This document shows, in pieces, positions 37,914 to 38,402 of a stretch of 64,000 bases of DNA. The stretch spans positions 13,950,001-14,014,000 of the forward strand of contig OX597828.1 of NCBI GenBank assembly GCA_951406725.2, given 5' to 3'. The notes under the pieces were generated by a model. The model searched no databases. It saw only the letters and a program-made list of their open reading frames with translations, and was not told the origin of the DNA. A program made the position numbers and the translations under genes. Position 1 is the first letter of the stretch, and the number at the start of each line of letters is the position of its first letter. Origin of the DNA: Octopus vulgaris. Taxonomy: Eukaryota.

Positions 37914-38402
37914 ATAGTTCTATATTTAAGAGATATTTCTTTATTTAAAAGTTATTTATGTACATCATTTACATTATTTACATTATTTACATTCGACAGA
38001 TATTTGTCCTCATCTTGTTTGTTAACACAACGTTTCGGCTGATATACCCTCCAGCCTTCTTCAGGTGTCTTGGGGGAATTTCGAACCTGGGTTCTCATTC
38101 CTAAGGTATTTTTCGATGTTGTTGTTATTATTATTATTATTATTATTATTATTATTATTATTATTATTATTATTATTATCATTATTATTATTATTATTAT
38201 TATTATTATTATTATTATTATTAGTAGTAGTAGTAGTAGTAGTAGTAGTAGTAGTAGTAGTAGTAGTAGTAGTAGTAGTAGTAGTAGTAGTAGTAGTAGT
38301 AGTAGTATTGTTGTTGTTAGTGTTCAGGTCACTGCTTGGAATCGTACTCAGAATCTTGGGGTTAGTAGCCCGCGCTCCTAACCACTACGCCACATGCCCG
38401 TG
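37914..38402 (-). mobile_element. Composite SINE: tRNA head + (TAC/TAA)n + hammerhead tail
   Basis: A box TGGCGTAGTGG and B-box-like GAGTACGATTCC at 38333-38399; HHR at 38024-38069; same architecture at 46133-46420. Confidence 0.8.
38024..38069 (-). ncRNA. Minimal hammerhead ribozyme
   Basis: GACAC CUGAAGA A GGCUG-gaggguauau-CAGCC GAAAC GUU^GUGUU. Confidence 0.85.

Follow-up and report, generated by a model that had tools for sequence, protein, structure and literature searches.

According to the account of rotifer Penelopes in PMC3846280, the pseudo-LTR (pLTR) of these Penelope-like elements (PLEs) takes in the first codons of the ORF, begins with a palindrome, can carry an optional 31-bp tail and is accompanied by target-site duplications (TSDs) of 9–10 bp. 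For the anole Poseidon element, the in vitro experiments described in PMC11167929 located two internal sites at which reverse transcription starts, on both strands, and indicated that the hammerhead of the element needed its protein and was dispensable for insertion in vitro. The minimal hammerheads of Penelope-like elements are characterized in the work of Cervera and de la Pena (PMC4209133) as dimer-dependent and weak in vitro. The window analyzed in this study is a stretch of 64,000 nucleotides from Octopus vulgaris, for which the original prediction was a composite, self-cleaving SINE made of a tRNA promoter head, a triplet microsatellite and an intact hammerhead, and borrowing Penelope rather than LINE machinery. 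SINEs pair with LINEs, and to our knowledge the promoters of PLEs have hardly been studied. Our analysis led us to a different designation, to which we give a probability of about 0.75: the piece at 37,914–38,402 is a solo, 5'-inverted pLTR of an autonomous PLE, and its tRNA-derived head is likely the promoter of that element, predicted to be used by Pol III.

The head, the (TAC)n(TAA)n spacer and the hammerhead-bearing tail were all located on the minus strand as had been described, and the short inverted copy of the head was also present (Table 1). The latter is the leftover inverted 5' arm typical of Penelope-like insertions; the same 5' pivot was found in many genomic copies and as the leading loose end in four DNA-type sequencing runs. 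The head is indeed tRNA-related and its A box is an exact match to the consensus, but the B box of this copy is damaged by a T>A change in TTC (AGTACGATTCC here versus AGTTCGATTCC in the family), ARAGORN called no tRNA in the head, and the head has no cloverleaf fold. Similarly, the canonical core and the cut position of the hammerhead were as predicted, but the ribozyme is of the minimal type, and Rfam, at its gathering and E-value thresholds, called neither a hammerhead nor a tRNA at the window copy. Elsewhere in the window, a U6atac minor spliceosomal snRNA gene was identified by Rfam (8769–8881, plus strand, 71 bits).

In other copies of the family the spacer is usually (AAT)n/(AAC)n and varies in length. 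The window also holds a long degenerate triplet-repeat region (CTG/GTT/GAT) at 4300–6900, with low-complexity open frames. Translation of the window copy gave the family peptide up to a private stop, which is in frame and lies in an insertion unique to this copy (37944–37964, minus strand), 3' of the hammerhead, together with a T4 run near 37950. By comparison across the family, a 9-nt repeat at the short end occurs in one to four copies, always in frame. No TSD was visible for the window copy, though both the inverted remnant and the long end are present. With its damaged B box and in-frame stop, the window copy is an ordinary dead insertion, and transcription of this copy by Pol III is unlikely. 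The identity of the hammerhead to that of a second copy in the window (copy 2) was borne out, as 50 nt around it (46316–46365) match the window copy. The window also contains a 570-nt inverted pair (12607–13176 and 49631–50200), 95% complementary and 36 kb apart, which is probably two copies of a dispersed repeat.

Table 1. Features of the pLTR copy under study and of its companion in the window.
Feature	Position	Strand	Description
Solo pLTR under study	within 37914..38402	(-)	head, triplet tract and hammerhead-bearing tail
tRNA-Arg-related head (5' part of pLTR)	38320..38402	(-)	from sequence and comparison with full copies
A box	38382..38392	(-)	exact match to TGGCNNAGTGG, consensus per PMC8969392
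B box	38338..38348	(-)	33 nt past A box; damaged, TTC>TAC
Triplet microsatellite spacer	38126..38315	(-)	(TAC)28 then (TAA)n
Tail	37916..38125	(-)	210 nt; end of 5' UTR and first ~55 codons of RT-endonuclease ORF
ORF ATG	38098-38096	(-)	
Minimal type I hammerhead	38025..38068	(-)	inside coding frame; core 38064-38029; predicted cut 38029/38028
Optional 30-40 nt 3' extension (PLE 'tail')	37916..37964	(-)	window copy has the long end
Inverted copy of head	38405..38421	(+)	17 nt; pivot on short palindrome at head start
Copy 2	46048..46419	(+)	inverted long-end arm (46048-46126) joined head-to-head with head, spacer and short-end arm (46127-46419)

The search for an autonomous Penelope element sharing the tail, which had been put forward together with the original prediction, was successful, and the tail proved to be the start of the ORF of that element. 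In all 29 further loci selected with the endonuclease end, the head adjoins the end of an ORF encoding a reverse transcriptase (RT) and a GIY-YIG endonuclease, and in the same 29 loci the tail sequence follows further on, displaced by ~850 nt in one. In full copies 27 nt separate the stop codon of the ORF from the head, and the next ORF starts downstream of the head. Conversely, 35 of 38 loci picked by the ORF start have the tail immediately 5' of the ORF body. In the systematic 1.0-Mb sample, the DNA upstream of the head runs into the end of the GIY-YIG ORF in 5 of 11 loci, and two contigs, from an examination of contigs of four organisms, bridge head and ORF. Walking 5' revealed RT motifs and one complete but decayed pLTR-ORF-pLTR copy (L254). 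The order of the unit is head, triplet tract, ORF start with hammerhead, RT, GIY-YIG, stop, 27 nt and next head. Based on the head following the ORF stop, the tail being the ORF start and the existence of the full copy L254, we are all but certain that head, triplet tract and tail together constitute the pLTR of an autonomous PLE. As such, the earlier view of the unit as a composite SINE with borrowed machinery is replaced by that of the element's own pLTR with N-terminal coding sequence as its tail; the expectation of Penelope rather than LINE machinery was correct, and the tail is not a LINE 3' end.

The features by which EN+ PLEs are recognized were found in this family: a single ORF with a PLE-type RT and GIY-YIG, a partial tandem of pLTR-ORF-pLTR in which the pLTR takes in the ORF start, an inverted 5' arm, an optional 30–40 nt tail on one end, a short TSD and a minimal hammerhead in the pLTR. 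In protein comparisons the element protein resembled RTs and PLE clusters, a search with a longer protein gave two distant matches, and Pfam gave no match on two fragments of the element. A CX2-5CxxC Zn-finger linker is missing from the translations of the element and is present in a co-resident Neptune-type ORF. Since this linker is given in the clade definitions of PMC8557442 as what sets Neptune/Nematis against Penelope/Poseidon, its absence points to the Penelope/Poseidon clade, to which the element likely belongs by motifs, not by tree. Copies are ~4–7% from the family majority sequence. All copies seen were broken, and because the longest open frame among the best 150 endonuclease matches was 569 aa, the family looks extinct in this genome. 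The contigs of four presumed-RNA runs cover all 30 bins of L254, a contig cover that is no measure of expression, start or strand; for the DNA-type runs, contig depth upstream of the head falls to about 1/3–1/2, which, depth being no copy number, was not used as evidence. A metagenome scan in which the query carried a simple-repeat leader yielded repeat matches only.

The partner of the tail emerged only from the systematic sample. Families recovered in a hunt with the Pfam GIY-YIG domain were rejected as partners; they were mostly of Neptune type, their hammerheads differ, and they do not resemble the tail. Among the elements observed is a young PLE family of Neptune type, in which intact 781-aa ORFs are numerous and which ends at (AT)n (L108 2842–5184, the 3' regions of L093 and L109, and elsewhere) and has a hammerhead-like motif near its 3' end in which U3-A8 replaces C3-G8. 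A Neptune-type GIY-YIG fragment in the window (63513–63719, plus strand) is 51% identical to this 781-aa family. Divergent GIY-YIG fragments were also noted near position 5000 of L099 and L100, and these we take to resemble remnants of Naiad- and Hydra/Nematis-type PLEs.

The genome searched comprises 2.80 Gb in 227 contigs, in which searches with the tail gave 2578 candidates and searches with the head 684. The systematic sample consisted of 100 segments of 10 kb and gave 12 matches, one of which (L166) was dropped as a different tRNA-headed repeat. The 11 that remained correspond to a density of 11 per Mb and, by extrapolation, to about 30,000 loci (15,000–55,000). Heads of a different tRNA-related repeat, weakly similar to the pLTR head, were also seen in the window at 21696–21711 and 25195–25241. 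Other repeats sit in the (AAT)n tract of L023, L053, L056, L060, L260, L305 and L307, where they split head from tail; the inserted pieces in L023 and L053 presumably are related to R4/Dong-type LINE ends, which they resemble.

The ends of the copies were informative as to how they are inserted. Their 3' ends form two groups ~35 nt apart (67 and 74 of 167 arms), and among 56 head-to-head pairs, 49 had one long and one short end, seven were short/short and none was long/long. Flank duplications of at least 8 nt were present in 30 of the 56 pairs, versus 1.1 in a shuffled-pair control, and target duplications measured 8–14 bp. Contigs from four organisms agree with this genome in both 3' ends and in the 5' pivot. 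At the opposite end, 25 of 27 head-containing arms in the tail-picked set have their 5' end at head positions 1–19, where ~7% of 5' ends would be expected from a rough ORF truncation rate derived from a hand-picked subset, and the ORF-bearing copies L329 and L356 start at head positions 5 and 10. Of nine head-bearing ORF-start copies, four start at 35–43 and three continue into the previous unit, the latter indicating that some templates began upstream of the head or were inserted in tandem.

We propose a model in which the RNA would start ~13 nt upstream of the A box, the element protein would cut the two target strands 8–14 nt apart, and reverse transcription would start internally at two sites downstream of the hammerhead, in keeping with the in vitro results for the anole Poseidon. 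A start at the first copy of these sites in the RNA would produce a short cDNA reaching to the RNA 5' end, that is, the SINE-like unit, and a start at the downstream copy of the sites would produce ORF-bearing, 5'-truncated insertions. The two cDNAs would then join head-to-head at the short palindrome that marks the start of the RNA.

The hammerhead is composed of stem I (ACAC/GUGU), the core CUGAAGA with an extra A, stem II (GGCUG/CAGCC) and GAAAC-GUU, and its helix III consists of the self-complementary ACGU alone, with no loop III. Both its sequence and its predicted fold are those of the minimal type, and the core is the same in both subfamilies of the element. L325 and L321 have a reading frame that stays open across the hammerhead, and in other loci the tail is in frame but interrupted by isolated stops. 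Self-cleavage, which had been predicted for the window copy, is doubtful for a lone copy of this dimer-dependent minimal type, and the copies end ~50–95 nt past the predicted cut, not at it. Hammerheads with a longer helix III were observed at L104 4300–4900, where each of two ~355-nt tandem units in a TA tract contains one, an arrangement that is retrozyme-like.

Several explanations for the short copies were weighed. That they are a conventional LINE-dependent SINE, or that head and tail met by chance in (TAA)n, is refuted. Although a partner is missing on the same arm in 5 of 29 head-picked loci and in 11 of 29 tail-picked loci (the other 18 having the head on the same arm), most of the loci without it either have the triplet tract interrupted by another repeat or carry the head on the inverted arm. 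Moreover, the linkage check proposed with the original prediction found the tail within 300 nt on the same strand in 24 of the 29 head-picked loci, versus ~0.2% by chance, and the 3' end of the unit is the 5' coding end of the PLE ORF, not a LINE-derived tail with poly(A) or a simple repeat. A repeat of the retrozyme or Sm-alpha kind, multiplying via ribozyme-cut monomers or circles, would have the same ingredients as Sm-alpha/Sj-alpha, a Pol III promoter and a hammerhead, in the description given in PMC6765202. This origin is largely refuted and highly improbable, however, as the copies lie scattered, singly or in head-to-head pairs, rather than in tandem arrays of monomers, their ends are away from the cut site, and the ribozyme is inside a protein-coding frame. 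Clearly less improbable, though still well below an even chance, is that many of the short copies come from solo pLTRs that Pol III transcribed and that the parent protein copied in trans, a process that may coexist with the pLTR reading. Part of the family would then have behaved as a true Penelope-dependent SINE, in line with the original prediction and with its partner identified. Supporting such a process is that short copies possess all that is needed, namely the two boxes, A and B, together with the two RT start sites, and that rotifer pLTRs are presented in PMC3846280 as sufficient for trans-mobilization. Short copies also outnumber ORF-bearing ones in head- or tail-picked sets (0/29, 1/29 and 1/19 ORF-bearing, versus 5/11 in the systematic sample of 11 loci), and a spacer-edge variant is enriched in short arms (28 short and one ORF-attached arm in a head-picked set that was selected for the variant; 3 of 32 ORF-attached heads). 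Against it, short and ORF-attached copies were equally diverged in both the tail (3.8 versus 4.4%, P = 0.57) and the head (5.0 versus 4.6%, P = 0.79), haplotypes were common to the two, with one cross-checked site differing (P = 0.003 among ~260), and short copies showed no variant of their own. The like-for-like comparison of divergence brought up no later SINE wave. Given the equal age and common variants, no separate SINE lineage was found, and the composite SINE of the original prediction is not supported; rather, equal divergence and common haplotypes fit short copies that came from the RNA of the parent via the first pair of RT sites.

The pLTR reading leaves the role of the head to be considered, and here the evidence is more evenly divided. 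At the family level the head has the makeup of a SINE head, in that it is tRNA-related and has A and B boxes, 10–15 nt from the 5' end. Among six amino-acid types sampled it is closest to tRNA-Arg(TCT), with 50 identities over 73 nt, its A box begins 13 nt from the head start, and the boxes are 33 nt apart; the position of the A box and the box consensus in SINEs are given in PMC8969392. Both boxes are kept in the older subfamily, and three G>A changes in the boxes are also found in tRNAs of this genome. L203, a candidate for a head-less sister family, was rejected, as it proved to be the older subfamily, which has this head too. The family majority unit (~2.4–2.5 kb) has no T4 run on its sense strand, where 2.6–4.4 were expected (P = 0.01, 0.04, 0.044 and 0.016 under four nulls that are not independent), and decayed copies have a T4 density of 0.36/kb versus 0.79–8.4/kb in 27 of 29 other long ORFs. 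The pile-up of 5' ends at the head and the T4-free unit suggest transcription by Pol III. However, G4 runs are absent from the unit too (0 versus 2.9), the other two of the 29 control ORFs are also T4-free, and no head-less Poseidon family is among the controls, and so the T-run signal is modest and we put the odds that the family was transcribed by Pol III from its tRNA-type head at about even. That an uncapped Pol III RNA would make a poor mRNA also counts against Pol III. Furthermore, in the account of PMC3846280, junctions also pile up at the start of the pLTR, where a palindrome is likewise present, in rotifer Penelopes that have TATA/Inr-like motifs, which means that a pile-up marks the start of the repeat and does not name the polymerase.

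A tentative alternative, of somewhat less than even probability, is a passenger head: a piece of a tRNA or SINE that came to lie in the 3' UTR of a Poseidon driven by Pol II and would now act only as an RT stop or a self-priming hairpin. A LINE-like internal promoter is described for the Penelope of D. virilis in PMC2377424, palindromic pLTR starts exist without a tRNA in the PMC3846280 account, and the three copies that continue into the previous unit also favor a passenger. The 5' ends, on the other hand, cluster ~13 nt upstream of the A box, which is the usual SINE geometry, box spacing and consensus are kept in two subfamilies that are ~13–15% apart, and the whole unit is without T4, all of which argue against a passenger. 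In its fullest form, the promoter reading would have an autonomous PLE taking up a tRNA-Arg promoter, purging Pol III terminators from the whole unit and being transcribed by Pol III, with each end-repeat insertion a ready-made SINE. We consider this fullest form possible but, like the passenger, short of an even chance; if true, it would provide a direct route from an autonomous PLE to Penelope-mobilized SINEs, and a natural protein made from a Pol III transcript.

A PLE with a tRNA-type promoter in its terminal repeat would show how PLEs can give rise to hammerhead-bearing SINE-like repeats such as Sm-alpha, and would lead one to ask how translation of a Pol III RNA is achieved. In practical terms, Penelope ends make up ~30,000 loci to which a repeat annotation would probably give the label SINE, and the family offers ample natural data on the PLE integration model with one long and one short end and a TSD of 8–14 bp. 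Ohshima and Okada reportedly described the octopus tRNA-derived SINEs OK, OR1 and OR2 in 1994, with tRNA-Arg-related heads for OR1/OR2. The head may already be catalogued as a SINE; its likeness to OR1/OR2 is at the level of tRNA-Arg relatedness. The main text of the octopus repeat annotation in PMC13282606, in the portion available, does not mention a hammerhead or ribozyme. We found no description of a tRNA-headed pLTR in the literature searched, and Repbase, Dfam or supplementary TE libraries (e.g. that of PMC13282606) may already hold the family.

Compared with known systems, the octopus element correlates well with anole Poseidon PAc (PMC11167929) and Adineta Pen2a (PMC3846280), as far as these are laid out in the respective accounts: all have a single ORF of ~800 aa with RT plus GIY-YIG at the C-terminal end, a pLTR that takes in the first ORF codons with a hammerhead that overlaps the ORF start, two 3' ends 30–40 nt apart, an inverted pLTR, a TSD of 8–14 bp and a palindrome at the pLTR 5' end. 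The octopus element differs in that a tRNA-derived head with A and B boxes and a triplet microsatellite stand at the start of its pLTR, in the place of a TATA/Inr-like or LINE-like internal promoter, the unit has no T4 runs, and the ATG is upstream of the hammerhead rather than at stem II. Schistosoma Sm-alpha/Sj-alpha resemble the octopus unit as short non-coding repeats in which a type I hammerhead comes after a Pol III-type promoter, but in the descriptions of PMC6765202 and PMC8490949 they are often tandem, are processed by the ribozyme and have no autonomous parent named, whereas the octopus unit is its parent's own pLTR, is dispersed and has its ends at a distance from the cut. Animal non-LTR retrozymes (bioRxiv 10.64898/2026.07.22.740005) are likewise short hammerhead-bearing sequences from PLE pLTRs; they are defined there as tandem repeats, with no tRNA head mentioned in the text available, whereas the octopus copies are dispersed. 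The presence of a Pol III-type small-RNA sequence within the terminal repeat of a retroelement is also reported, in the account of PMC10886601, for Cassandra, Helenus and Ajax, which are non-autonomous LTR elements, whereas the octopus element is an autonomous PLE. The class to which the octopus family belongs, PLEs with a pLTR and a hammerhead, is a known one, and the unusual part of the family is the tRNA-type promoter that opens the pLTR.
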